Part shown: positions 25,398 through 58,809 of the stretch, one piece after another
How positions within the stretch are numbered: position 1 is the first letter of the stretch
Layout: the number at the start of each line of letters is the position of its first letter
Assembly (NCBI GenBank): GCA_963666055.2
Contig: CAXWPH010000015.1
Coordinates: 352,001 to 416,000 of the forward strand
Direction: 5' to 3'
Origin: Acidobacteriota bacterium
GTDB taxonomy: Bacteria > Acidobacteriota > UBA890 > WLXD01
DNA: 64,000 bases
The notes under the pieces: model-generated
What the model saw: only the letters and a program-made list of their open reading frames with translations
Database searches by the model: none
What the model was told of the DNA's origin: nothing
Program-made: the position numbers and the translations under genes

Positions 25398-25676
25398 CTA
25401 GCAGGCCGTGGTGAAAGTGTGGTGGGTCTGGTTACGGCGAGTTGGGGCCAGATGCAAGGCGGCCTGACACGGGCGATGCCCCGGCCATCGTCGAGGAAGG
25501 CCAACGCCGCAAATGGCCCCAAATCGCCGTAACCCTTCGGGCGACAGGGGGTTGCGCGCGTATCCTGCGTCGTTCCTCGTCCACGATGGGGTAACCATCG
25601 CCTCCTCCTCTCTCCTTGCCTCCACTTCGCAAGTCCCTGTCGACAGACCCACCACACTTTCACCACGGCCTGCTAG
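25398..25676. mobile_element. 279-bp MITE-like element, copy 1
   Basis: 33-bp perfect terminal inverted repeats including CTAG at both ends; near-identical copies at 31113 and 51525. Confidence 0.88.
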
Positions 25677-29463: not shown

Positions 29464-31116
29464 GTGAAAAGGCGTGACTTCATCAAGCTCGGCGCAGCTG
29501 TCGGCGCCATCGCAAGCGGTCCAGCTACACCGTCTGCAATCGCAAGACAGCACCCAGCGGCCACGACCGAGAGCTATCGATCGAGGGGCGGTCGCGACCT
29601 GGCCATCGTCAACGCCAAGATCGTCACCATGGAGCCAGGGCAGCCGGAAGCCGAGGCCGCCCTTGTTCGAGGTGGCCGCGTGGTGCTGGTCGGAGACAGC
29701 ACCGAGGTACGCTCGCAGGCCGGTCCCGTAACGGTCTTTGATGCCGCAGGGCGAACGGTCGTACCGGGATTCATCGATGCTCACACCCACCTGGAGGTAG
29801 CCTGCGTCGCCGAGACCTACCAAGCAAAGGTCCACACACCCCCTCTCGGCAGCCTTCGAGAGGTCATCGACGTGTTGCGCTCCAAGACGGCCGAGACACC
29901 AGCAGGCGAATGGGTGATTGCTCGCGGCTCGTTCGCTCTCGAGCGGCGCGTCAGCGAGGGCCGATTGTTCACCCGGCAAGATCTCGACGACGTCACCCAG
30001 GACCACCCCTTGATCGTGTTTTCCGGACGCCACGTAGCCATGCTCAACACCAAAGCGATCCACACGATGGGGCTCTGGGACCCGGACTCGACGCCGCCTC
30101 GTGGAGCGATCGTTCATCGGGACGCCTCCGGCGTACCGACCGGCACCGCGACCGAGCTCTACTATCTGCTGCCCTCGTACTCGATCGAACAGGTCAAGGC
30201 GGCGATCCGCGAGCACGTCGGCCCGATGTTCGTCGCCAACGGTACGACGTCCGTATATACCGTTCCCTACTCGACCAGCGACATCACCGCCGATCTCGAG
30301 CTACAGGCAGCCGGCGAGCTGCCGCTGCGCGTGCGCATGTACTACCACGTACCCCACATGATCTCCCTGCAGGGTCTTCTCGATACCGGTCTGGTCTCCG
30401 GCTTCGGCGACGATATGTTTCGTTTGGGGGGTGTAAAGCTCTTTGTCGACGGGCTCGGCGGCAACGGTCTCGGGGACCCGCTCGAAGACTACAAGTGGAC
30501 CCAGGAGGAGCTCGACGAGTTGGTGTTCCAGGCTCACACGAGCGGCCTCCAGGTGCTGATGCACGTGATCACGCCGGGGGCCGTGCATCGGGCCGCGACC
30601 GCCGTCGAGAAAGCCCTGCGTCGTGATCCCCGACCCCATCGTCATCGGCTCGAGCACGGTGGCAGTGTCGAGACCGTCGAGGAGATGCGTTGGCTGCGCG
30701 ATCTGGGATTGCGTCTGGTCGTCACCCCCAGCCGTGGCCGGCCGGGACGCCGCACACCACGCTACCGAACGCTGGTGCGGGAGGGACTCGAGATCATCGG
30801 CATCACCGATACCACCGGCACCGTGCCGGGCTCCTCCGCACCGCTACCGAAGATCGCCGCGGCGATGGTATCGGTCGAGGAGGGCGGCGGGGCGCCCGCC
30901 GGAGAGACGCTGACCTTCGACGAGGCGCTGCGTCTGTACACGCTGTGGGCGGCACGCGGTGGTCTGGAGGAAGCCGACAAGGGCTCGATCGCCGTCGGCA
31001 AGCTGGGTGACTTTGCGGTGCTCTCCGATGACCCACGCAACCTTGCCGGCGAGGATCTATTCGGGGTCCAGGTGGAGGCGACGATCCTCGGCGGCGAGGT
31101 CGTCTTCGAGCGCTAG
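29464..31116 (+). CDS. Tat-exported amidohydrolase (YtcJ-like)
   Basis: GTG start after AAGGAGG; KRRDFIK; PGFIDAHTH, KLFVDG, RLEH, GSIAVGKLGD. Confidence 0.88.
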   Translation: MKRRDFIKLGAAVGAIASGPATPSAIARQHPAATTESYRSRGGRDLAIVNAKIVTMEPGQPEAEAALVRGGRVVLVGDSTEVRSQAGPVTVFDAAGRTVVPGFIDAHTHLEVACVAETYQAKVHTPPLGSLREVIDVLRSKTAETPAGEWVIARGSFALERRVSEGRLFTRQDLDDVTQDHPLIVFSGRHVAMLNTKAIHTMGLWDPDSTPPRGAIVHRDASGVPTGTATELYYLLPSYSIEQVKAAIREHVGPMFVANGTTSVYTVPYSTSDITADLELQAAGELPLRVRMYYHVPHMISLQGLLDTGLVSGFGDDMFRLGGVKLFVDGLGGNGLGDPLEDYKWTQEELDELVFQAHTSGLQVLMHVITPGAVHRAATAVEKALRRDPRPHRHRLEHGGSVETVEEMRWLRDLGLRLVVTPSRGRPGRRTPRYRTLVREGLEIIGITDTTGTVPGSSAPLPKIAAAMVSVEEGGGAPAGETLTFDEALRLYTLWAARGGLEEADKGSIAVGKLGDFAVLSDDPRNLAGEDLFGVQVEATILGGEVVFER

Positions 31117-31392
31117 CAGACCGTGGTGAAAGTGTGGTGGGTCTGGTTACGGCGAGTTGGGGCCAGATGCAAGGCGGCCTGACACAGGCGATGCCCTAGC
31201 CATCGTCGAGGAAGGCCAACGCCGCATAATGGCCCCAAATCGCCGTAACCCTTCGAGCGACAGGGGGTTGCGCGCGTATCCTGCGTCGTTCCTCGTCAAC
31301 GACGGGGTAACCATCGCCTCCTCCTCTCTCCTTGCCTCCACTTCGCAAGACCCTGTCGCCAGACCCGTCACACTTCCACCACGGCCTGCTAG
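31113..31392. mobile_element. MITE-like element, copy 2 (280 bp)
   Basis: Same TIRs with a few substitutions; left CTAG contains the amidohydrolase stop codon. Confidence 0.88.
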
Positions 31393-44478: not shown

Positions 44479-45204
44479 TCAACGCTTGTTCCAGATGTCG
44501 ATGACCTCGGTATGCCCCACCAGCGTAGCGTTGTCACCGATGTACAGCATCGCGTCCTCGGCGCGAGCCGGATCCGTCGGCACGATGGCGTCCTTGATGG
44601 CAACCGTGCGGTAGCCGAGGCTGCGGGCGGTCTGCATCGTCGGCACCACGCCGACCTCGGCGCCTACCCCGACGATGACGATGGTGGTGATTCGATTCCA
44701 CCGCAGCAACGCATCGAGTGCAGTGGCAATGAACGCGTCCGGCCGGTACTTCCTGAGCACCCAGTCATTGACCTCTGGCGCTATCTCCTCTGGGTTTTCC
44801 CAACCCCAGGTGCCCTCGTGGGTCGAGATCGTCGACGGTGGTCCAGTGTTGCTGGGCCTGTCGCCCGGTCGCCCATAGGTCGACCCGTCCGGATAGGAGG
44901 TCCAGCGAACATAGGCAACCCGTACGTTGTTTGCTCGCGCCGCAGCCAGCAGCTCGACCATCGGGTCCATGATGCCGGTGACGTCGATGCGGCGCCCGCT
45001 GATGTCGAACGTTCCGCCCTCCGAGACGAAGGCGTTGAGCACTTCGTGGACGAGAAGAACCGTGTGTTCTGGACGCAGCAGCTCTTCGAGCTCCGGACCC
45101 GACGGTGCTTGAACGCTCCCTCGCGCTCCCGCCGCCGGCATGTAGCCGAGCACGACGACCAGCAGGGCAAGGGTCGTTATCCGGATTCCTGGCCTGCGTC
45201 TCAT
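44479..45204 (-). CDS. Exported isochorismatase-fold protein lacking the catalytic Cys
   Basis: GTWGWE, KYRPDAF..T.LD..LR; GVGAEVGV in place of G..T..CV. Confidence 0.75.
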   Translation of the reverse strand: MRRRPGIRITTLALLVVVLGYMPAAGARGSVQAPSGPELEELLRPEHTVLLVHEVLNAFVSEGGTFDISGRRIDVTGIMDPMVELLAAARANNVRVAYVRWTSYPDGSTYGRPGDRPSNTGPPSTISTHEGTWGWENPEEIAPEVNDWVLRKYRPDAFIATALDALLRWNRITTIVIVGVGAEVGVVPTMQTARSLGYRTVAIKDAIVPTDPARAEDAMLYIGDNATLVGHTEVIDIWNKR

Positions 45205-45439
45205 GTTTCCTCCTTCATCCAAAGTGCCGGAAGTCATCGCCAGACAGCTCACGCTGGAGCCGATCAACACCCTGTACAACTTCGAGACGCGAATCGCCGG
45301 TAGGGGCGCGATCCATGAACCCCGAATCAGCAAGATCAGCGGGTCTCGTGATCATTCGTGCGGTAAGGCAATCGCTAAGCGTACAATCCAACCGCGCGAT
45401 AGGACACCAACACGTCGCGCAGCAGCGCGGCAGGGCTCC

Positions 45440-46994
45440 ATGTACAGATCAGTGGCTCGACGTGAATTGGGTGCGATTGGCAAGTTCGCGGTGACGGCGA
45501 CCATCGTGGCCGTCACGGTGTCAGGAGCGGCGTGCTCGGGAGAGGCCGATTCCCGGCCACCGGAGGGTGCCTCGACGACGCTGGACGGCCTGCAGGATTC
45601 GTTGCTGCGATGGCCGCTGCCGTCCGGCGCTGAGGCGTACGCGGACATCGACGGCCGGCGCCTGCATCAGTACGTCGTCGACCAGGCGGAGATATCGCGG
45701 CGGTATCGAGATCAGGGGCATCCGCAGTTCTGGGGCCGGATCACCGGCACCTCCGCCGATGCGGACAGCGCCGAGTGGCTAGCCGCCAAGTTCCGCGACA
45801 TCGGCCTCTCGGAGGTGCGCATCCAACCGCTCGAGCTCGAGCCGCAGTGGATGGCGCAGTCGTGGGAGGTGTCGGTCACGGCCGGCGGCGAAACCTTCCC
45901 GCTGGAGTCCGCCCAGCCGGCTTATCGCACGTCGGCGACACCCCCCGACGGCCTCCGACTCGACGCCGTGTATGTGGGGCTCGGCAGCGAAGCCGACTTC
46001 GCCGGGCGCGACGTCCGTGGCAAGGCCGCGTTCGCCTTCGGCATGCTTGGGGGTGCGGACGGAGCGCGCACTGGCGCGAGCCGATGCTAGCGGCGCCGCC
46101 GCCATCTTCGATGTTCGGATGTTGCCGGGGAACATACGCTACCAGGCCTACCCGGCGCGAACCAACGTCCCAACATTTACTCTCGGAGGCGACGACGGCT
46201 ATGCGGTCCGCGACCTGATCGCCGTGGCGGCGGCGGGCGAAGCACCGCGGATGAGGGTGGAGCTCGAGGTCGAGATGGTCCCGGATCTCGAGACCGCGCT
46301 CGTCTGGGGCACGCTCCCGGGCGCCACCGACGAGACGATCTACATCATGGCGCACCGCGACGGCTGGTTCGACGCCGCCGGTGACAACGCCTCCGGCGTC
46401 GCCTCGATGATCGGGCTAGCGGAGCACTACGCGCTGATCCCGCCGACCGAGCGGCGTCGCACGATGGTCTTTCTCGGCCTGGATGGACATCACAACTCGG
46501 GACCGGGCTCTGCGGCGGGCGGATTCTGGTTGATGGACCACCGGGAGGAGCTCTTCGCGAAGACCGCCTTGGTGATCAACTGCGAGCATCCGTCGACGGT
46601 GCAGACCACGGTCAGGCCGCGATACCTGGGGAAGGACGAGATCACCTGGTCGAATGCGTACATGCCCCAGCAGTGGTACGTAGGCGGCCCCTCGAGACCT
46701 CAGCTCGGGGCGATCGCCGTCAGCGCCTTCCGAGAGTTCGGGGTCAGCACGTATCTCGAGCCGAATGCCGAGCCGCCGGCCGGGGATCTCGGCTGGCGTG
46801 GCGGACCGGAGCTGTGGCGCTTCGTGCCGGGCATCGCGACAAGCGAGTTCTACCACTACTTCCACACCGACCGGGAGACGCCGGAGACCGTCTTGTGGAC
46901 CGGTCTCGAGGCGTCGACGCGAGCCTACGCGCGCATCGTCGACGAGGTGAACAAGCTCGAGCTGAGCGACTTGCAGCGGCCAGAGGAACCGTAG
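45440..46994 (+). CDS. M28 family peptidase lipoprotein, frameshift near 46060-46075
   Basis: FWGRITG in one frame; AHRDGW, DNASG, FHTD in the next frame. Confidence 0.75.
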
Positions 46995-47127: not shown

Positions 47128-49089
47128 ATGAGATGGAGCCAGCTGGCCGCGCGCTCCAACACCGACGTCGCCGCTCCGCAGGCGAGGGCGGAGATCGTCG
47201 CGCTGCTGGTCGAGCATGGGGGTGGCACCGAGGGCGAGGCACTCGTTGACCTCATCCGGACGGGCTACCTCGATGCGGTGCGGACGATCGTCGGGCGAGG
47301 CAGCGCCAACCCATCGTATCTGAACGCGGCGCTCGGCGCGGCACGCAGCAACCAGCATACTGAGCTGGCAGCGTTCCTCGTCGCAGCGGGCGCGCAAGAG
47401 CCGACAGCGGTGGATCGCGTCTACACAGCAGAGCGACTGGAGCGACTCGAGGGCGTCTATCGGGCTCAGAGCGGGGAGACGGTGGCGCTCCGGAGGGGCT
47501 CCGAGGACGGCGAGCTCGTCCTCGAACGGACCGATCGTGGCGACATGACGCTCGTGCCGGCCAATCTGACCATCTTGCGATCTCTCGACCGAACGGCGGT
47601 TGTCGAGCTGCGCGGAGGAGCCCTGCCAGCGTCCGAGTTGGTGTTGTCCGAAGGAGATCAGTCCGAGGTATTCCTATGGACCGCCCCGGTCGACGAACGG
47701 CCGAAAGCCGCCCCGGTCAACGACCGTGCCATGAATCGGCCCGGCGCGCCCCCGCCAGTGTCCGGCGCCCGGGAGTGGTCTTCGTTCCGCGGTCCCGGCG
47801 GTTCGGGCGTCGCCGATGGGACCGACCTGCCAACCGAGTGGGACGTGGAGCGGGGGGTCAACGTTGTCTGGAAGACGCCGATTCCGGGGCTCGGTCATTC
47901 GAGCCCGATTATCTGGGGCAACCGAGTGTTCATCACGACCGCCGTCCCGAGCGCGGATGCGGTTGCGACCTTCCGGAACTTCTCGGAGGTCGTACGCTCC
48001 GGGGTCCTCGCGTACGTCAAGGAGGACGTGCGGTATTCGTGGCGGGTGATCGCGCTCGACAAGAATAACGGTGAGCTGCTCTGGGAGCGGGTGGCGCGCG
48101 AAGCGGTGCCACGCACGGCACGTCACGTCATGGCCTCGCATGCCAACCAGACGCCGGCCACGGACGGTACGCACGTTGTGGCGTGGTTCGGGTCCGAAGG
48201 CGTCTACTGTTATGACGTCGATGGCAACCTGCTGTGGTCCAAGGACCTCGGCCCGCTCCCATCGGGTCGCTACTTCGATCCGGGATACCAGTGGAACACC
48301 GCGAGCTCGCCCATCATCTACAAGAATCTGGTGATCCTCCAGGCGGACGGGATCGACGAGGCGTATCTCTTGGCGCTCGATATCACGACGGGCGAGGTGG
48401 TCTGGCGTACCGAACGTGATGAACACCCGTCCTGGCCAACGCCCTTCATCTACGAAGGCGCCACACGCATCGAGCTGGTCACCGCCGCCATCAGATTCGC
48501 GCGCGGCTACGACCCCGACACGGGCCAAGAGCTCTGGAGGCTCGGCCTGCACGGCGACTTTCCGACACCCACACCGATTGCCGGCCGTGGGCTGATCTTC
48601 ATCATGAGTGGGTACGGCACGGTCGAGCCCATCTACGCTATCCGTCCCGGCGCCAACGGCGACATCACGCTGGCTGACAACGAAACCTTCAATGACTCGG
48701 TCGCCTGGAGCAAACGGCGGGGGGGGCGGGGGGGGGGGGGGGGGGGGGCGGTCATCCCAACGCCGATCGTCTATGGAGACCTGCTGTATGTCTGCCGGGC
48801 CGGCGGTATCCTGGCCGCCTATCAGGTGGAGACCGGAGAGCGTGTTTATCAGGCGCGGATCACCCGGGGCGGCAACTACTCGGCGTCCCCCGTGGCGGCT
48901 GACGGCAAGATCTATTTCGCCAACGAGGACGGAGAAGTGATCGTCGTCAAGGCCGGTCCGAAGTTCGAACGCCTGGCGGTCAATCAGATGGGCGAGCCGC
49001 TCATGGCAACCCCGGCGATTGCCCATGGGATGATCATCTTCCGCATGCAGGAGCACGTCGTCGCGATCGCCCTGGGCTCAGCTGAGTAG
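47128..49089 (+). CDS. PQQ/BamB-like beta-propeller protein with ankyrin-like N-terminal remnant
   Basis: WSSFRGP, SSPIIWG, TPATDG, ASPVAADG; poly-G tract inside. Confidence 0.8.
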   Translation: MRWSQLAARSNTDVAAPQARAEIVALLVEHGGGTEGEALVDLIRTGYLDAVRTIVGRGSANPSYLNAALGAARSNQHTELAAFLVAAGAQEPTAVDRVYTAERLERLEGVYRAQSGETVALRRGSEDGELVLERTDRGDMTLVPANLTILRSLDRTAVVELRGGALPASELVLSEGDQSEVFLWTAPVDERPKAAPVNDRAMNRPGAPPPVSGAREWSSFRGPGGSGVADGTDLPTEWDVERGVNVVWKTPIPGLGHSSPIIWGNRVFITTAVPSADAVATFRNFSEVVRSGVLAYVKEDVRYSWRVIALDKNNGELLWERVAREAVPRTARHVMASHANQTPATDGTHVVAWFGSEGVYCYDVDGNLLWSKDLGPLPSGRYFDPGYQWNTASSPIIYKNLVILQADGIDEAYLLALDITTGEVVWRTERDEHPSWPTPFIYEGATRIELVTAAIRFARGYDPDTGQELWRLGLHGDFPTPTPIAGRGLIFIMSGYGTVEPIYAIRPGANGDITLADNETFNDSVAWSKRRGGRGGGGGGAVIPTPIVYGDLLYVCRAGGILAAYQVETGERVYQARITRGGNYSASPVAADGKIYFANEDGEVIVVKAGPKFERLAVNQMGEPLMATPAIAHGMIIFRMQEHVVAIALGSAE

Positions 49090-51498
49090 GCGTTCACTAT
49101 TGGGGTCGTAAAGCGGCTGCTCGACGACCTGTGCGGAACGGCGCTCGCCGAGGATGCCTACCTCCAACTCGGTGCCAGGCTCGATGTAAGCGATCGGCAA
49201 GTAGGCGAAGCCGATCGACTTCTGAACGCTATGGCCATAGCCGCCCGACGCGATGTAGGCGATCGGTTTTCCGTCTGCGTAGATCGGCTCAAAGCCACGT
49301 GCATCCGCGTCATCGGCGTCGATGACGAGACCGGCGAGCTGGCGATCAACGCCTTTCTTCTTCTGCTCGAGGAGCGCGTCGCGGCCGATGAAATCGCCCT
49401 TCTCGAAATCGACGAAACGCTCCATTCCAGCCTGCAGCGGTGTCCAGTCCGCCGACATATCCGCTCCCCAGAGCCGGTACGCCTTCTCGAGCCGCATCGA
49501 CTCGAGCGCCCGATATCCCCAATCGACGATCCCGTACTGTGCACCCTCCTTCATCAACAGATCGTAGAGGTAACGCTGATATTCCATGGGTGTGTGCAGC
49601 TCGTAGCCGAGCTCACCGACGAATGAGACTCGCAACACCCTTACCGGCACTTTGTCGACGTGCAACTGCTTGCAACGGAAGAACCGGAACGCCTGATTGG
49701 AAATGTCGGTGTTGGTGAGCGGTTGGATGAGATCGCGTGACCGGGGTCCCGCCACCGTCAGGGTTGTAATGCTGCTGGTCGTGTTCACCAGGCTTACGCT
49801 GCCGTCGTCGGGCAGGTGGCGCTCGATCCACGCATGGTCGTGGAGCTCTGTCGCGGCGGCTGAGACGACATAGTAGTGACCCTCGGCGAGCCTGGTCACT
49901 GTTACATCGCATTCGATACCACCTTTCGGAGTGCACATCTGCGTCAGCGCGATGCGGCCGTCGCTCTTTGGAAGCCTGTTGGCGCAGAGGCGGTCGAGGA
50001 AGCTCTCGGCGCCTGGTCCCGAGACCTCGTACTTCGCAAAGCTCGACTGGTCGAGTACGCCGACGGTCGATCGAACCGCAGCGCACTCCTTGCCTACCGC
50101 ATCGTGCCAGTTTCCACGACGAAACGAATACTCGTCGCGCCTCGGTCCGTCCGGGTCAAACCACAGCGGACGCTCCCACCCGAATCGGGCGCCGAAGACG
50201 GCTCCCTTGGCGAGCAGTCGATCGTAGAGTGGATCCGTCTTCAAAGGCCGGCCAGCCGGGAGCTCCTCTTCGGGATAGTGAATCGCGTATTCGCGCCGAT
50301 AGACCTCGAGCGCACGTTCCGAGATGTAGCTGGAGGAGGCCGCGTAGTCATCGAACCGCCGCACGTCGAGCTCCCACATGTTGTCGCTCGGCTGTCCATC
50401 GACGATCCACTCCGCGGCGTATTTCCCAGCGCCACCACCAAAAACGATGCCGAAGATGCTGAAGCCCGCCAGGACGTGAAAGTTCGGCAGGCCCGGTACC
50501 GGACCCATGAGGCAGTGACCATCCGGCGTGTAACCGTCGGGTCCGTTGACGATGGTCTCGATCGGTGCATCAGCGAATATGGAAATGCGTTCGGCGCAGC
50601 CGAGGAGAGACTCTTCGAGGCGATCGGGCGCTGGCCTGAGCAGACAGCTGTGAAAATCGTCTGGGATTCCGTCGCCCCCCCATGTCACGGTGTCGTGCTC
50701 GAAGGGGCCGACGAGCAGAGCGCCCTCCTCCTCTCGAACGTAGAACGATGAATCGGGATCCCTCAGTACGGGCAACTCGCTGGTGAGGGCCTGCACCTCT
50801 TTCAGTGCCGTGGTGACGAGGTAATGGTGCTCGAGGGAAACAATCGGCAGGTCCAGTCCGACGAGGCGACCGATCTGTCTCGCCCATTGGCCCGCCGCAT
50901 TAACGATCACATCGGTACGGATCTCGCCCTTCGTCGTCTTCACGAGCCAACCATCACCATCTCGCTCGATCGCCGTTACCCCCGCGTGCCGGTGGATTTC
51001 GGCCCCCTCTGCCGTTGCTCCGCTGGCCAGCGCCCGGGTGACGCCAGAGGGATCCACGTGGCCATCGGTCGGAATGTGAGCGATGGCAAGCGCATCGTCG
51101 AAGTTCGCAAGCGGGAAGAGCTCGTGAGCTTGCGCGGGAGTGATGATGTTGAACGGAATACCGAGTGTCTCGGCGATGCCCTTACGGTTGTTGAACTCGT
51201 CGAGACGATCCTCTGTCGTGCCGATCCGGAGGCTGCCGCACTGATGGAAGTCGACCGCCTGTCCGGTTTCGGCCTCGAGCCGCTTGTACAGATCGATGCT
51301 GTACTGGAGGAGTTTCATCAAGTTCCAGCTCGAGATCATCTGCGTGCACAGACCCGCTGCGTGCCACGTCGAGCCGCTCGTCAGCTCGTCCTTTTCGACC
51401 AGGACAACGTTCTTCCATCCCAGCTTCGTCAGGTGATAGAGAACACTGCAGCCTGCTATCCCTCCTCCGATGACCACCGCTTGCGCTTCGTTTCGCAC
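49078..51498 (-). CDS. GcvT-family FAD-dependent oxidoreductase (dimethylglycine dehydrogenase-like)
   Basis: GGGIAG, SGSTWHAAG, YTPDG, GWERP, RVSFVGELGYE, RLEKAY. Confidence 0.92.
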   Translation of the reverse strand: MRNEAQAVVIGGGIAGCSVLYHLTKLGWKNVVLVEKDELTSGSTWHAAGLCTQMISSWNLMKLLQYSIDLYKRLEAETGQAVDFHQCGSLRIGTTEDRLDEFNNRKGIAETLGIPFNIITPAQAHELFPLANFDDALAIAHIPTDGHVDPSGVTRALASGATAEGAEIHRHAGVTAIERDGDGWLVKTTKGEIRTDVIVNAAGQWARQIGRLVGLDLPIVSLEHHYLVTTALKEVQALTSELPVLRDPDSSFYVREEEGALLVGPFEHDTVTWGGDGIPDDFHSCLLRPAPDRLEESLLGCAERISIFADAPIETIVNGPDGYTPDGHCLMGPVPGLPNFHVLAGFSIFGIVFGGGAGKYAAEWIVDGQPSDNMWELDVRRFDDYAASSSYISERALEVYRREYAIHYPEEELPAGRPLKTDPLYDRLLAKGAVFGARFGWERPLWFDPDGPRRDEYSFRRGNWHDAVGKECAAVRSTVGVLDQSSFAKYEVSGPGAESFLDRLCANRLPKSDGRIALTQMCTPKGGIECDVTVTRLAEGHYYVVSAAATELHDHAWIERHLPDDGSVSLVNTTSSITTLTVAGPRSRDLIQPLTNTDISNQAFRFFRCKQLHVDKVPVRVLRVSFVGELGYELHTPMEYQRYLYDLLMKEGAQYGIVDWGYRALESMRLEKAYRLWGADMSADWTPLQAGMERFVDFEKGDFIGRDALLEQKKKGVDRQLAGLVIDADDADARGFEPIYADGKPIAYIASGGYGHSVQKSIGFAYLPIAYIEPGTELEVGILGERRSAQVVEQPLYDPNSERLLS

Positions 51499-51524: not shown

Positions 51525-51803
51525 CTAGCAGGCCGTGGTGAAAGTGTGGTGGGTCTGGTTACGGCGAGTTGGGGCCAGATGCAAGGCGGCCTGACACAGG
51601 CGATGCCCTAGCCATCGTCGAGGAAGGCCAACGCTGCAGATGGCCCCAAATCGCCGTAACCCTTCGGGCGACAGGGGGTTGCGCGCGCATGCTGCGTCGT
51701 TCCTCGTCAACGATGGGGTATCCATCGCCTCCTCCTCTCTCCTTGCCTCCACTTCGCAAGACCCTGTCGCCAGACCCACCACACTTTCACCACGGCCTGC
51801 TAG
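51525..51803. mobile_element. MITE-like element, copy 3 (279 bp)
   Basis: Perfect TIRs with CTAG at both ends. Confidence 0.88.
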
Positions 51804-51824: not shown

Positions 51825-52619
51825 TCAGGGCCTGGTTGCCCGGAAGTTGATGCCGACGGTGCCAAACTCGCTGGCGCTAGATGCCTGCGGGGCGCCGTCG
51901 AAGACCTCCGCCTTCCAGGTGATCTCGAAGTCGGTGAAACCCGCCGCGACGACCGTCGCCTCGAGCTCTGCTTCCAGCAGAGCGCCGGCGATTCAGCCGG
52001 TCCACAAATCGATCTTCTGTTTCGCCGCCTCCGGTACTTCTCGGCTTACCAGAATGTCGCCGATCTGCAGCCGACCGCCGGGGCGCAGCACGCGGAACAT
52101 CTCACCCAGGGTCTGTTGCTTGTCGGGCGTCAGGTTGAGCACGCCGTTGGAGATCACCACGTCGGCCCAGCCGTCGGGCACCGGGATCTCCTCCATGTAG
52201 GCCTCGCGGAACTCGACGTTATCGATGCCCGACTCGACGGCGGCGGCCCGCGCCCGCTCGAGCATCGCCGGGGTCATTTCGATGCCCACAACCTCGCCGT
52301 CTGGGCCGACCATGCGAGCGGCGACGAGCGAGTCGATACCCGCGCCCGAGCCAATGTCGACCACTCGCTCACCAGAAGCCAACTCGCCCATGGCAAAGGG
52401 GTTGCCGGTGCCGGCAAACGATTCGATGGCCGATTCCGAGACACCTTCGAGCCACTCGTCCTTGTAGCCGACGATCTTGGTCAGCGGGCGGCCGGTGTGG
52501 AAGTGGAATCCCTTGCCGGGGTTCTCAGCCACTACCGCGTATTCGTCCTGGATGGCTTTGCGCAGGGTGTCGGTATCGACATCGATAGCTCGGGCCACCA
52601 GCGAACGGTCTGCCGTCAT
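51825..52619 (-). CDS. ArsM-like SAM-dependent methyltransferase, probable selenoprotein (UGA codon 209)
   Basis: RBS AAGGAG; VVDIGSGAG; LWTG-UGA-IAGAL continues 55 codons to TGA at 51825-51827. Confidence 0.85.
51956..51992 (-). promoter_or_regulatory. Bacterial SECIS-like stem-loop
   Basis: UGA-AUCGCCGGC-GCUCUGCU-GGA-AGCAGAGC-UCGA-GGCGA: 8-bp upper stem, lower UCGCC/GGCGA stem, G-first loop 17 nt after UGA. Confidence 0.75.
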
Positions 52620-52799
52620 CGGTTCTCTCCTTGTCTCATCCAGCAGGAATTGAACGATACCCTGAGACGTTCGACGCTGCCGACGCACGATGCTGCAGAA
52701 GACGCGCTGCTCAACCTCCGCGCCCTCGGAACCGATGAGACGGAGAGGGTGTTAGCTCTTGGCCAGGGCCACCCTCGCAACACCGGCCAATATGATCAG

Positions 52800-55222
52800 T
52801 CACTTGGCGTTGAGGCGCGCCAGGGCGTCGTCGAGATGACGACGATACGCCTCACGATCCTCCGGCCTCAACCAGGCGTCTCTTTGATCCACACGACGCC
52901 AGATCTCCTCGATCACCGCGGTCAGGAACTCGGCGGACGCCCGTGATGCATCGTTCGGCAGCGCGCCGGCGAAGTAGACCGGCGTCGTGTGCGCGAAGGT
53001 GTAGTTGTCTCCGGAATAGCGGGCTTTGCCGCCCCGGGCCCGCACCGCGACCCAGCGCGCGCCACTTACCGGTATGGACTCGCTAGCTTCCAGCCGATTC
53101 TGTCGTGGCGACACGGGTACCGTGTGCACAACGCGTCCATCGACGATGATCTCGACCACGTCCACCGGGGCGATGGTCGCGAGGTCGACGGACACCGTCG
53201 CGCGATGGCGCGCGCTGATCTCCGAACCGGGCTCGTGACCGTCCACCTCGGCGAACAAGAGCGGTCCGTTGGTAGCCACAGTGCGGCCGGCGCGGACCGC
53301 CTCGATCCAGTCACCCCAGGTGAGCGGGCCGTCCAGTCGAGCGTAGGTGCGCGCCGTTCCACCGGACGGGTCGCGCCAGACGTTGGAGAAGTTGTCGGTG
53401 CCCCCGGTGGCGGCCAGCCGGATGCCGACGTTGAGCATGTGGTAGTAGATCGCGGCGCTGGCCATCTCGTCCGACGCGGTGGACACCACGTCGTAGAAGT
53501 TACCGCGCCCCAGGATGGCGTGGATGGGAATGTCGGATTGAGCGGCACCAACGGGCGTGGCGACGCTGGCGCTGTTGCCGGTGTAGGGGTGCAGGAACCC
53601 ACCGATTCCACCGAGGGCCTTGATGGCATCCAGATATGTGAGCTTGAGGCCATCCGCGGGGTACGGGGATCCATCGGTGCCGCCGATGAGGGGCATGATG
53701 AAGTCCTCCGCGCCCCGAGCAACGCCACGTGTCCGAAGGATCCGCGGAACTCCTGGCTGTACCGCAGGATGGTGTCGTCGCTGGATCCGGAGTAATCCTG
53801 GCCCGTGAGGTCGCTCCATCGACCCATGATCTTGGTGCCATCCATGTGGATCAGATCATTGGCAACGTGAAGATCGTCGGCCCGCAACTGATCGAAGAAC
53901 TCCTGCTGGGTGAGGCCCCAGCGTCCCTCGTGCAAATCGTGCACGTGGGTGTCGCCCGACACCCAGTCAGATTGCCGCGGATCAGAGAGGCGCTCCATTC
54001 GGAGCTCGACCGTCGTGGTCTCGCCCGCCGCGGCGCGCACCGTGACGTCCGCCGGAACCCACTCGAACCCCCGGATCGCCTCGACCCGCACCTCTCCGGC
54101 CGGCACGGTAACCTCGAACTGGCCGGTCGAATGGAAGTAGTGGATCTCGTTGGCCGGACTGACGCGATGAAAGGCGTTGTTCGGGACGTAGCCGCGTCCG
54201 TCCGAGGCCAGGAGCTGGATTCGGGCCGGGACGATCGCGCCGTCCGGTCCGGTCACGCGTCCGCGCAAAGTCGCGCCGTCGTAGCGCGGTGACAGGCGGA
54301 CCTGCGTAAGCCGTTCCCACGCTTGATTGCCGCCGCCGAAACGAGACGTCACAAACAGAACGGTAGGGCCGTCCTGATTGCCGACGAACGCTACGCGCTC
54401 GCCGTCGGGACTCACCGCCGGGGCGAACTCGTCCAGAGGCTGCGAGGTCAGGCGAACGGGGTTGCCGCCCGCCGAGGGCACCGTCGCCAGGTCGTAGGAT
54501 CCGGCGGTGTCGGAGGCGAACACCAGGGCCGAGCCATCCGGCGTCCACGCGGGGGCCGCCCGGTAGCTGGTTTCTTCGTAGTGCACCAGCCGGGGCTCGC
54601 CGCCGGTCATCGGGACCATCCAGATCCCTCCGCTGCCGAGGCGTCCGCTCACCCTTGCGATGAACGCGAGCTGCGAGCCGTCGGGGGACAGCGCCGGCTG
54701 GAACTGGTGCCCGGCGCCGCCGACCACGGTGTCGACCGCACCGGTCGCCACCTCGTACCGCAGGATATCGAAATCCCCTCCGCGTGCCGACGCGAAGACG
54801 ATGAATCGCCCATCGGGAGTCCAGGCGGGTTGAATGTCCACCGCGGCGTCGGAGGTCAGGCGCCGGAACCCCGTGCCGTCGGCCCGAACCACAGCGATAT
54901 CGAGATCGCCGTCCGTGTCTACCGCGAGGGCGACCCATTCACCGTCCCGGCTCCACGCCGGCTCGAAGTGATAGCCGGGACCCTGGGTGATGGCCCGGGC
55001 GTGCTCCGTCCCGATGCTCTGAACCCAGATGTCGCCACGCATCGAGTAGGCCAGCGTCGAGCCGTCCGGGTGCCAGCTCGGATCGAGCGGTCCGCTGGTG
55101 ACGGCCGGGAGCATGTGGAGCTCCACCCGGGTCGAAAGCCCGTATCGGGGTAGCTGGGCGGCCGCGGAGGAGGAGAGGAAGATCCATGCGACACAAGCCA
55201 ACGACAGGAATCTACACGGCAT
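52800..55222 (-). CDS. TolB-like propeller fused to CehA/McbA metallohydrolase, frameshift near 53715
   Basis: PD40 repeats, SGDTHVH; continuation frame has GGTD, GRTVATNGP, FAHTTPVY. Confidence 0.8.
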
Positions 55223-58153: not shown

Positions 58154-58173
58154 TGTAGCATTACAGTGCTACA
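58154..58173. promoter_or_regulatory. TA operator palindrome
   Basis: TGTAGCA-ttacag-TGCTACA just upstream of the antitoxin RBS. Confidence 0.7.
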
Positions 58174-58183
58174 GGAGGCGACA

Positions 58184-58411
58184 ATGGTTAGGAACGTAAC
58201 GCTCCGCCGTATGGGCGGCTCCGTCGGTGCCACTCTCCCCAAGGATATGGCTGACCGATTCCATTTGGCTGCGGGCGACGAAATCATGGCCGTCGAGACG
58301 GCGCACGGAATTCTACTCACTCCCTACGATCCCGACGTTGAGGAGGGCCTCCAGATCGCCGCCGAGGCTCAGAAACGGTATCAGAACGCACTCCGTGAAC
58401 TGGCCAAGTGA
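58184..58411 (+). CDS. AbrB/MazE-type antitoxin
   Basis: LRRMGGSVGATLPK..YQNALRELAK; GTGA overlap with toxin. Confidence 0.88.
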   Translation: MVRNVTLRRMGGSVGATLPKDMADRFHLAAGDEIMAVETAHGILLTPYDPDVEEGLQIAAEAQKRYQNALRELAK

Positions 58412-58809
58412 GTGCTGCTGAGCCGCGGTGGGTGCCGCGGCTCGTCGTCGAGGCTGCACATCTGGATCAGATCCGCGAGCACGGTGGTCTGATCGGAATC
58501 CGAGACGACAATGCGCTCGAGTCAGCTCTCGCTCGGGCACGACAACGCTGGTCCTATGAGCCTCAGGTCGACCTGCCACGCCTCGCGGCAGACGACGCGT
58601 TTGGGATTGCCTCGAACCACCCGTTTCAAGACGGGAACAAGCGCACTGCGTTCCTCGCCGCCGTCATCTTCCTCGGACTGAACGGCCTCGATTTCATCGC
58701 CCCAGAGGACGAGGTGGTTGCTCGGATGATCAGTCTAGCCTCCGGCGACATTGGCGAAGAGGACATCGCAGATTGGATCCGCTCACGAGTCAAATCCAGG
58801 GGTCTGTAG
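58408..58809 (+). CDS. doc: Death-on-curing (Fic/Doc) toxin
   Basis: HPFQDGNKRTA motif. Confidence 0.9.
   Translation: MSAAEPRWVPRLVVEAAHLDQIREHGGLIGIRDDNALESALARARQRWSYEPQVDLPRLAADDAFGIASNHPFQDGNKRTAFLAAVIFLGLNGLDFIAPEDEVVARMISLASGDIGEEDIADWIRSRVKSRGL

Follow-up and report, generated by a model that had tools for sequence, protein, structure and literature searches.

The window analyzed here, a 64,000-nucleotide stretch of an Acidobacteriota genome, contains a well-supported selenoprotein gene, a further member of a catalogued family of selenocysteine-containing, ArsM-like proteins known since 2007–2008. The program-made list of open reading frames ends this gene at the TGA at 51995–51993. 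With that codon read as U, translation yields a 264-residue protein with U209 in the context LWTG-U-IAGAL and zero cysteines, as the sequence-only reading that drew attention to the gene had claimed, and the comparative evidence presented below leaves very little doubt that the UGA is decoded as selenocysteine (Sec). The features of the gene are as follows.

52627–52632, minus strand: Shine-Dalgarno-like AAGGAG, 7 nt before ATG 52619
51825–52619, minus strand: ArsM-fold methyltransferase gene (class I SAM-dependent), from ATG 52619 to the stop TGA at 51825; 264 aa, Sec209, no Cys
52497–52505, minus strand: His39-Phe40-His41 motif, near the location of the canonical ArsM N-terminal Cys; putative functional role
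52335–52358, minus strand: SAM-binding motif I, DIGSGAGI, residues 88–95, from sequence (Pfam Methyltransf_31, E 1.8e-33)
51993–51995, minus strand: in-frame TGA, codon 209, probable Sec; aligned with CmArsM Cys224, with TGA/TGC alternation among homologs
51965–51983, minus strand: SECIS upper stem-loop, 8-bp stem with a GGA loop from 17 nt after the UGA, predicted from fold, synonymous lock and covariation
51956–51991, minus strand: predicted SECIS in full, with its weakly conserved lower stem, from fold; lower-stem pairs partly broken in homologs
51828–51992, minus strand: 55 codons after the UGA, dropped by gene callers, recognized from pN/pS and predicted secondary structure

Because of the position of AAGGAG and because close homologs measure 208 residues up to the TGA, ATG 52619 is favored as the start over an upstream GTG at 52688, which is less likely. 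Promoter and terminator scans found none, and the RNA runs contain only 0.00–0.08 of the sequence words.

The in-frame UGA, its hairpin and the codons that follow

Homologous loci in named genomes are spread over Acidobacteriota, Gemmatimonadota, Chloroflexota, deltaproteobacteria and others. Across 58 related genome loci, codon 209 is TGA in 55 and TGC in two, with one locus uncovered; in the best 80 of 553 metagenome loci it is TGA in 77 and TGC in three. Taken together, TGA occupies the codon in 132 of the 137 covering loci and TGC the others, never TAA or TAG, which is the alternation of UGA and Cys that the sequence-only reading had proposed as a check. Most of the database proteins (105 of the best 120) stop at WxG, and the 15 long ones carry Cys (11), Trp (2), Arg (1) or Tyr (1) at the Sec position. 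The prevalence of this 208-residue form in databases is what a true stop or nonsense mutation would predict, with the short protein as the product. We consider that explanation scarcely credible, as the codon alternates with TGC and never with another stop, the tail behind it is conserved and part of the predicted fold, and the genome holds the machinery for Sec.

That machinery is complete in the sense that selA, selB, selC and selD were all found in the genome (95.7% complete): selA (contig C9), selB (C6) and selD (C2), all above their curated cut-offs, and two tRNA-Sec genes (G000:C6:7932-8029 and C13:66090-66187) with one mismatch in 98 bases. The pair of tRNA-Sec genes, a Lys-Glu-Thr tRNA cluster on both C7 and C10, and two selA matches in the relative G002 may reflect duplication or strain mixture. 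A match with one internal TGA was obtained in 15 of 40 relatives, and 13 of these 15 have selA above the cut-off; a partial selA match was found in G024 and none in G023, in assemblies that are 68% and 69% complete, respectively.

Several other explanations of the codon were tried and rejected. An assembly error is excluded because homologs carry the same TGA. Contigs from runs X1 and X2 (X1 is possibly the source sample) span the codon with no differing letters, with only 22 letters on one side; read-depth peaks in the same comparison were left out, being due to other organisms and a repeat. A genome-wide TGA = Trp code is at odds with TGA being the commonest stop (1823 of 3487 long coding frames) and with the presence of tRNA-Sec. 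ARAGORN called a tRNA-Pyl (cta) at G000:C5:65608-65685 (minus strand), but no PylS scored over the cut-off, so a pyrrolysine system was dismissed; the call is probably false, or the tRNA an odd one.

Bacterial SECIS elements are hairpins located just 3′ of the UGA whose apical loop opens with a G. Here the upper stem, GCUCUGCU/AGCAGAGC, occupies +10 to +17 and +21 to +28 and lies just 3′ of the UGA, the GGA loop (+18 to +20) begins with G, and a lower stem pairs +2 to +6 with +33 to +37. The 43-nt piece folds at -22.2 kcal/mol (z = -2.21; 5 of 200 shuffles equally good), and three longer pieces give z of -0.94 to -1.58, so that folding energy, taken by itself, exceeds chance only modestly. Since this is weak proof of a SECIS, we used comparative tests.

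In those tests, Ala213 is encoded by GCT in 54 of 55 TGA loci, against 10.7% among the remaining Ala codons of these genes, and Ala217 by GCA in 48 of 50, against 10.6%; the hairpin evidently locks rare synonymous codons at both positions. Among 22 close homologs, the SECIS region has a pN of 0 and a pS of 0.273, compared to 0.50–0.51 elsewhere in the gene. For 30 chosen sequences, the covariation score of the named structure exceeded all 500 of 500 shuffles, a type of score that relatedness inflates, and percent paired was not clearly above chance (32 of 500 shuffles). The pair +15/+23 is altered on both sides in three of the 30. In the best 80 of 553 metagenome loci, the SECIS core folds at a mean of -3.5 kcal/mol in the three TGC loci vs. 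-9.6 in the 77 TGA loci. Of the hairpin as originally drawn, the upper stem and GGA loop are present and conserved; the lower stem can be formed but is poorly conserved, with two of its pairs broken in 17 of the 30 sequences, and we reject it as a conserved element.

The 55 codons past the UGA, judged plausible as coding sequence in the sequence-only reading, are also conserved. Their pN/pS is 0.115 after the SECIS vs. 0.169 before the UGA (22 close homologs), the frame stays open for 55–82 codons past the TGA in 54 of 55 TGA genome loci, and the AlphaFold2 model places a helix (216–225) and two strands (229–237 and 255–262) of the tail as parts of the fold. The tail is under purifying selection. 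The same reading had named observations that would speak against Sec, namely TGC or TGT in reads, a genome lacking selABCD, and homologs all ending at the codon or unconserved downstream, and none of these occurred; Sec read-through is instead supported by the TGA/TGC alternation, selA, selB, selD and tRNA-Sec, and the conserved tail and hairpin.

A crude genome scan for UGA codons followed by hairpins returned 45 candidates, mostly noise, with the ArsM-like gene first by coding score. Five others have redox-like contexts (UMPC, WUGC, TULAC and two WUPL): G000:C14:536181 (minus), C6:386052 (minus), C15:964774 (plus), C3:143460 (minus) and C15:1843609 (plus).

Relation to canonical ArsM and to catalogued selenoproteins

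The AlphaFold2 model (pLDDT 94.1) and the Pfam match assign the protein to the ArsM-type class I SAM-binding fold. Its nearest structure is CmArsM 4fr0 (Z 27.1, rmsd 2.2 over 215 residues; next entry 21.3), and Foldseek ranks 1–13 are all ArsM/AS3MT structures. The top NCBIfam models are likewise all of ArsM type, none above its cut-off; PRK11873/NF008823 gives 236.3 bits vs. 263. The genome's own multi-Cys ArsM also falls below the NF008823 cut-off, at 192 bits, which makes this score a weak test.

Canonical ArsM/AS3MT enzymes (CmArsM 4FR0, CrArsM 5EVJ and human AS3MT 8XT7) are the nearest structures, at 28–33% identity. PDB alignments place T71, G159 and U209 on CmArsM Cys72, Cys174 and Cys224 (Cys numbering from PMC6138428), so that Sec209 stands at Cys224, with Thr and Gly at the other two sites and a His motif replacing the N-terminal Cys; the protein also lacks the C-terminal extra domain. 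The available text of PMC6138428 states that As(III) methylation requires all four Cys, the arsenic site being made up of Cys174 and Cys224. That pair is absent here, and of the four conserved Cys (44, 72, 174, and 224), of which a published ArsM filter asks for at least three (PMC5552862, available text), only position 224 is matched, as Sec. The single-selenol pattern described from the sequence, including GTGNP and SNGV at two of the other ArsM Cys sites, is thus confirmed, and judged from the alignments the protein stands outside canonical ArsM by its defining cysteines.

The HFH motif is unchanged across 44 close sequences, and in wider representatives His39 is kept in 65 of 76 and His41 in 28 of 76. 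The two histidines lie 32 and 30 residues before T71, compared to 22–45 for the N-terminal Cys of 52 of 56 canonical proteins.

These losses extend beyond the single gene. Gly159 is present in all covered loci (55 of 55 genome loci and 80 of 80 metagenome loci, the latter being the best 80 of 553). The best 150 representatives from a profile search, clustered at 50%, comprise 79 of SNG type, none with Cys at 71; at position 209 these have Cys (33), the protein end (23), another residue (9) or no coverage (14). The 58 SNC-type representatives have Cys at 71 in 55 cases and at 209 in 57. On a maximum-likelihood tree of 159 rows (quick search, no outgroup), the two types require one change, against a shuffled mean of 47, with SH-aLRT values of 66 for the exact SNG/SNC split and 91 for the adjacent branch. 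Representatives without SN, AN or TN at 157–158, alignments below 140 residues, and P0123 were excluded from the tree.

The genome also encodes a separate multi-Cys ArsM/AS3MT-type protein of 420 aa (G000:C6:206333-207595; L066:1393-2655), which matches NF040538 at 319 bits (cut-off 500), and second matches fetched from relatives were of the canonical GCG/SNCV type in seven of seven cases. The genome (95.7% complete) has no match to acr3 or ArsC (PF03960), and contains two LMWPc genes. The suspicion that substrate or mechanism may differ from multi-Cys ArsM has indirect support from the branch-wide loss of the Cys72 and Cys174 equivalents, the tree split, the coexisting canonical ArsM and the sulfur-relay neighbors described below.

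Literal absence of Cys is less general, being found in 28 of 52 full-length TGA loci; the rest have 1–4 Cys, often in the SAM-binding loop. What characterizes the branch across these loci is that the arsenic-binding Cys positions are gone, not Cys altogether.

The sequence-only reading had allowed that Sec-containing ArsM relatives might already be reported, and they are, in selenoproteome catalogs. A 2026 review (PMC13188914, available text) counts “arsenite methyltransferase, NF008823, UxxG” as one of the selenoproteins of prokaryotes, with Fomenko 2007 cited as the first report. The family is also listed in the available parts of PMC9312934, and available counts are 41 proteins in 39 organisms (PMC5029168) and eight sequences in the GOS paper (PMC2398784). 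The GOS supplement displays all eight; four are of LWTxUIAG type, and three of these show SNGV (PMC2398784). One of its reads, JCVI_READ_1095469420928, is full-length, with FHFHTG, SNGV and LWTGUIAGALLEAEL, and has no Cys (PMC2398784). The Cys-free branch has therefore been in print, as sequence, since 2008, and the Cys-free pattern was overrated when singled out as the unusual part.

Our protein shares with this “Arsenite S-adenosylmethyltransferase” family (PRK11873/NF008823) the ArsM-like SAM domain, the Sec at the C-terminal conserved Cys, and UxxG (here UIAG). The catalogued family groups the SNG branch together with Sec forms of the canonical SNCV type (four of the eight GOS sequences), and in the available parts of the catalogs the lost cysteines are not remarked on and no separate function is offered; Fomenko 2007, Haft and Tolstoy 2025, or their supplements may already remark on them. 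The NCBIfam fusions ArsM/AhpD (NF041537), ArsM/DUF2284 (NF041536) and methyltransferase/UXPK-star (NF047649) also have an ArsM-like domain with UxxG, but the protein scores only 211–237 bits against their cut-offs of 460–575; as described in the available entries, they are longer fusions with two or three Sec, whereas this is a single domain with one. The literature covered, which took in few subscription journals, yielded no characterized Sec-containing or SNG-type ArsM homolog.

Gene neighborhoods and candidate substrates

Within the window, the gene has a predicted CehA/McbA-type hydrolase gene on one side and an FAD/GcvT-type gene on the other. It stands alone, is followed by a repeat element, and has no sulfur-relay neighbor. 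Among seven relatives, this order is kept in G002 only and not in G004, G005, G006, G011, G012 or G034; even in G004, which belongs to the same genus, the neighbors are different. An operon with the downstream or the upstream gene is not supported, the order being lost in six of seven.

The surroundings include other features. The downstream gene (49078–51498, minus strand) encodes an 806-aa FAD oxidoreductase with GcvT folate-binding domains and a dimethylglycine-dehydrogenase-like architecture. Upstream, a TolB-like propeller and CehA/McbA metallohydrolase (52800–55222, minus strand) is split into frames 53066–55222 and 52800–53819, by frameshift or assembly error. A MITE-like repeat of 279 bp, whose terminal inverted repeats are perfect over 34 bp and start with CTAG, occurs at 51525–51803, 25398–25676 and 31112–31392 of the window; the genome contains 94 near-full copies of it, of which 89 are at ≥85% identity, and it is absent at the matching place in G002. 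Farther off are a peptidase M28-like gene (45203–46994, plus strand), apparently split into the overlapping frames 45203–46090 and 45972–46994, and an AbrB/MazE-type antitoxin and Fic/Doc gene pair (58166–58809, plus strand).

Family-wide, neighbors are mostly unrelated to each other. When 735 neighbor ORFs from 138 loci were clustered, the commonest types were rhodanese-containing proteins (44 loci), MFS transporters (28), a second methyltransferase (24), DsrE (19) and OsmC (10). Within 3 kb, the best 80 of 553 metagenome loci have rhodanese (37), an ArsR-type regulator (31), an MBL-fold protein (31), DsrE (17) and TusA (13); the ArsR-type matches are the N-terminus of an ArsR-rhodanese fusion, and the MBL-fold proteins are persulfide-dioxygenase-like. 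Rhodanese, persulfide-dioxygenase-like, DsrE and TusA families handle persulfide. At least one of the four lies within 3 kb in 53 of these best 80 metagenome loci, or 21 of 39 clusters at 80% identity, a set that is biased because it was fetched with the TusA-fused P0064, consists of the best 80 of 553, and includes one cluster of 26 near-copies; among genome loci, only 7 of 58 have a sulfur-relay neighbor. TusA is also fused to the methyltransferase in P0064, P0083, P0153, P0174 and P0177 (5 of 33 long homologs scanned).

Other observations made at these loci include two likely selenoproteins, a UGSC-type gene right after the methyltransferase (L053:877-1296) and a DsbA-like neighbor with YIUPWC (L047:3853-4635). 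A sister Cys-only group (HFPTG, GVGYP, SNGV, LWAEC; listed loci L034, L088/L102 and L189) sits beside the Sec gene in L034:4503-5931, with a TusA fusion and DsrE, and in G034, and twice lies behind a sigma-70/zf-HC2 anti-sigma pair. In L020:6947-8299, the methyltransferase is immediately followed by ThsB TIR-like and SLATT genes, which are characteristic of anti-phage systems.

From this material we tentatively propose, at somewhat less than an even chance, that the substrate class is sulfane sulfur or sulfide, methylated with the assistance of the selenol, rather than arsenite. The loss of the arsenic-binding Cys would make sulfur compounds the likelier substrate. The proposal is guilt by association in other lineages, the gene itself being without such a neighbor. 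In the mechanism we envisage, SelB would bind the hairpin and insert Sec209, which by homology should lie at the substrate site beside the SAM methyl, as Cys224 does in CmArsM. Sec209 could then accept sulfur from polysulfide or from a persulfide carrier (TusA, DsrE or rhodanese) to form a selenenyl sulfide, SAM would methylate this, and reduction by thiol would release methanethiol or methyl persulfide, with His39 (and His41) perhaps assisting in substrate binding or deprotonation. Disposal of reactive sulfur would be the likely purpose. Counting against the proposal, the codon specifies Trp, Arg or Tyr in four of the best 120 proteins, and the residue is other than Cys in 9 of 79 SNG representatives.

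Among known enzymes, MddH and MddM (H2S/methanethiol S-methyltransferases) are class I SAM enzymes that, in their available descriptions, yield the products proposed here. As a point against the proposal, MddH is not linked to sulfur-generating genes, and the available text on it mentions no catalytic selenol or Sec and no sulfur-carrier link.

An arsenic methyltransferase after all is unlikely in our estimation, although the nearest solved folds, the top NCBIfam matches and the name used in catalogs all lean that way. Sec209 would then be a ligand of As(III) or, with greater likelihood, of a methylated or aromatic arsenical for which fewer ligands suffice; His39/His41 would complete the site, and free thiols would serve as reductant. 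One chalcogen is compatible with arsenic, since TtArsM (TTC0109, Thermus thermophilus HB27) is reported, in the available text, to use one Cys and two His for arsenite methylation, the same type of proposed active site; likewise, DMAs(III) is described as held by Cys224 alone (PMC6138428, available text). The Cys of TtArsM (Cys77) is, however, in the N-terminal part, and the available account calls this enzyme distant from other ArsMs. The joint Cys174–Cys224 site and the need for all four Cys also count against arsenite, as does the canonical ArsM held by the same genomes. No ars-type family was found among the 140 of 205 listed neighbors (58 genome loci) that were scanned, and LMWPc/ArsC is near just one of 145 family loci, about 5 kb off, with a control (1 of 13 short loci) that is weak and too small to discriminate.

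Not all associations point to sulfur. There are one MerC fusion (P0154) and one DsbA-like fusion (P0165) among the 33 long homologs, and DUF2652 precedes the methyltransferase in P0127, P0128, P0135, P0136, P0148, P0137 and P0172, six of which end at the Sec codon position (6 of the 33 long homologs scanned are DUF2652 fusions). OsmC is a neighbor in 2 of 58 genome loci and 11 of the best 80 of 553 metagenome loci, and of three plasmid homologs two adjoin OsmC and one lies behind a sigma/anti-sigma pair. The MerC, DsbA-like and OsmC links would suit a selenol that serves as a one-point ligand for a different soft metal or metalloid (Hg, Sb, Bi), or for an organic thiol or electrophile. They are single cases or nonspecific, with no mer gene in the scanned neighbors (140 of 205) or the 30 commonest neighbor clusters, and we regard such a substrate as quite unlikely.

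The substrates might instead be selenium or tellurium species (selenide, selenopersulfide); the enzyme would then guard Se-using cells from excess, and the Sec codon would also tie enzyme level to Se supply. Retention of Sec in 132 of 137 covering loci fits this, as do the selenoprotein neighbors in L047 and L053 and a TPMT-like gene near 6 of the best 80 of 553 metagenome loci; sulfur carriers can carry selenium too. Yet members of the wider group commonly have Cys instead (33 of 79 representatives), as do haloarchaeal and Chelatococcus plasmid homologs that sit beside OsmC or sigma-factor genes, and no selD or selA was found among the scanned neighbors (140 of 205), making a selenium role decidedly unlikely.

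Finally, Sec209 might itself accept the SAM methyl, as a relay or methylation switch, and hand it to a partner such as DsrE or TusA. Going by the PDB alignment, the methyl-acceptor site would carry a single, highly nucleophilic residue, Cys77 of TtArsM is docked beside the SAM methyl in the available account, and fusion or adjacency with small Cys proteins recurs. No precedent was found in the literature searched. Methylselenocysteine is a poor methyl donor, and we hold this relay to be very unlikely.

Consequences for annotation and a possible role in sulfur cycling

Gene callers remove the active-site residue and the last 55 codons of these proteins, as seen in 105 of the best 120 database matches, and some sources label the stumps “arsenite methyltransferase.” Surveys of arsM by name may therefore be inflated, while those filtered by Cys drop the SNG branch.

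Returning to persulfide sulfur as the substrate, we offer as a speculative possibility that the family is a widespread selenoenzyme, truncated and misnamed in databases, that methylates sulfur delivered by TusA, DsrE or rhodanese carriers through one selenol. If so, it would be a methyltransferase with a catalytic Sec, and would provide an unrecognized way in which reactive sulfur is turned into methanethiol or dimethyl sulfide in sediments and soils. More generally, if the branch methylates persulfide or selenide, it would represent a new step in sulfur or selenium volatilization.
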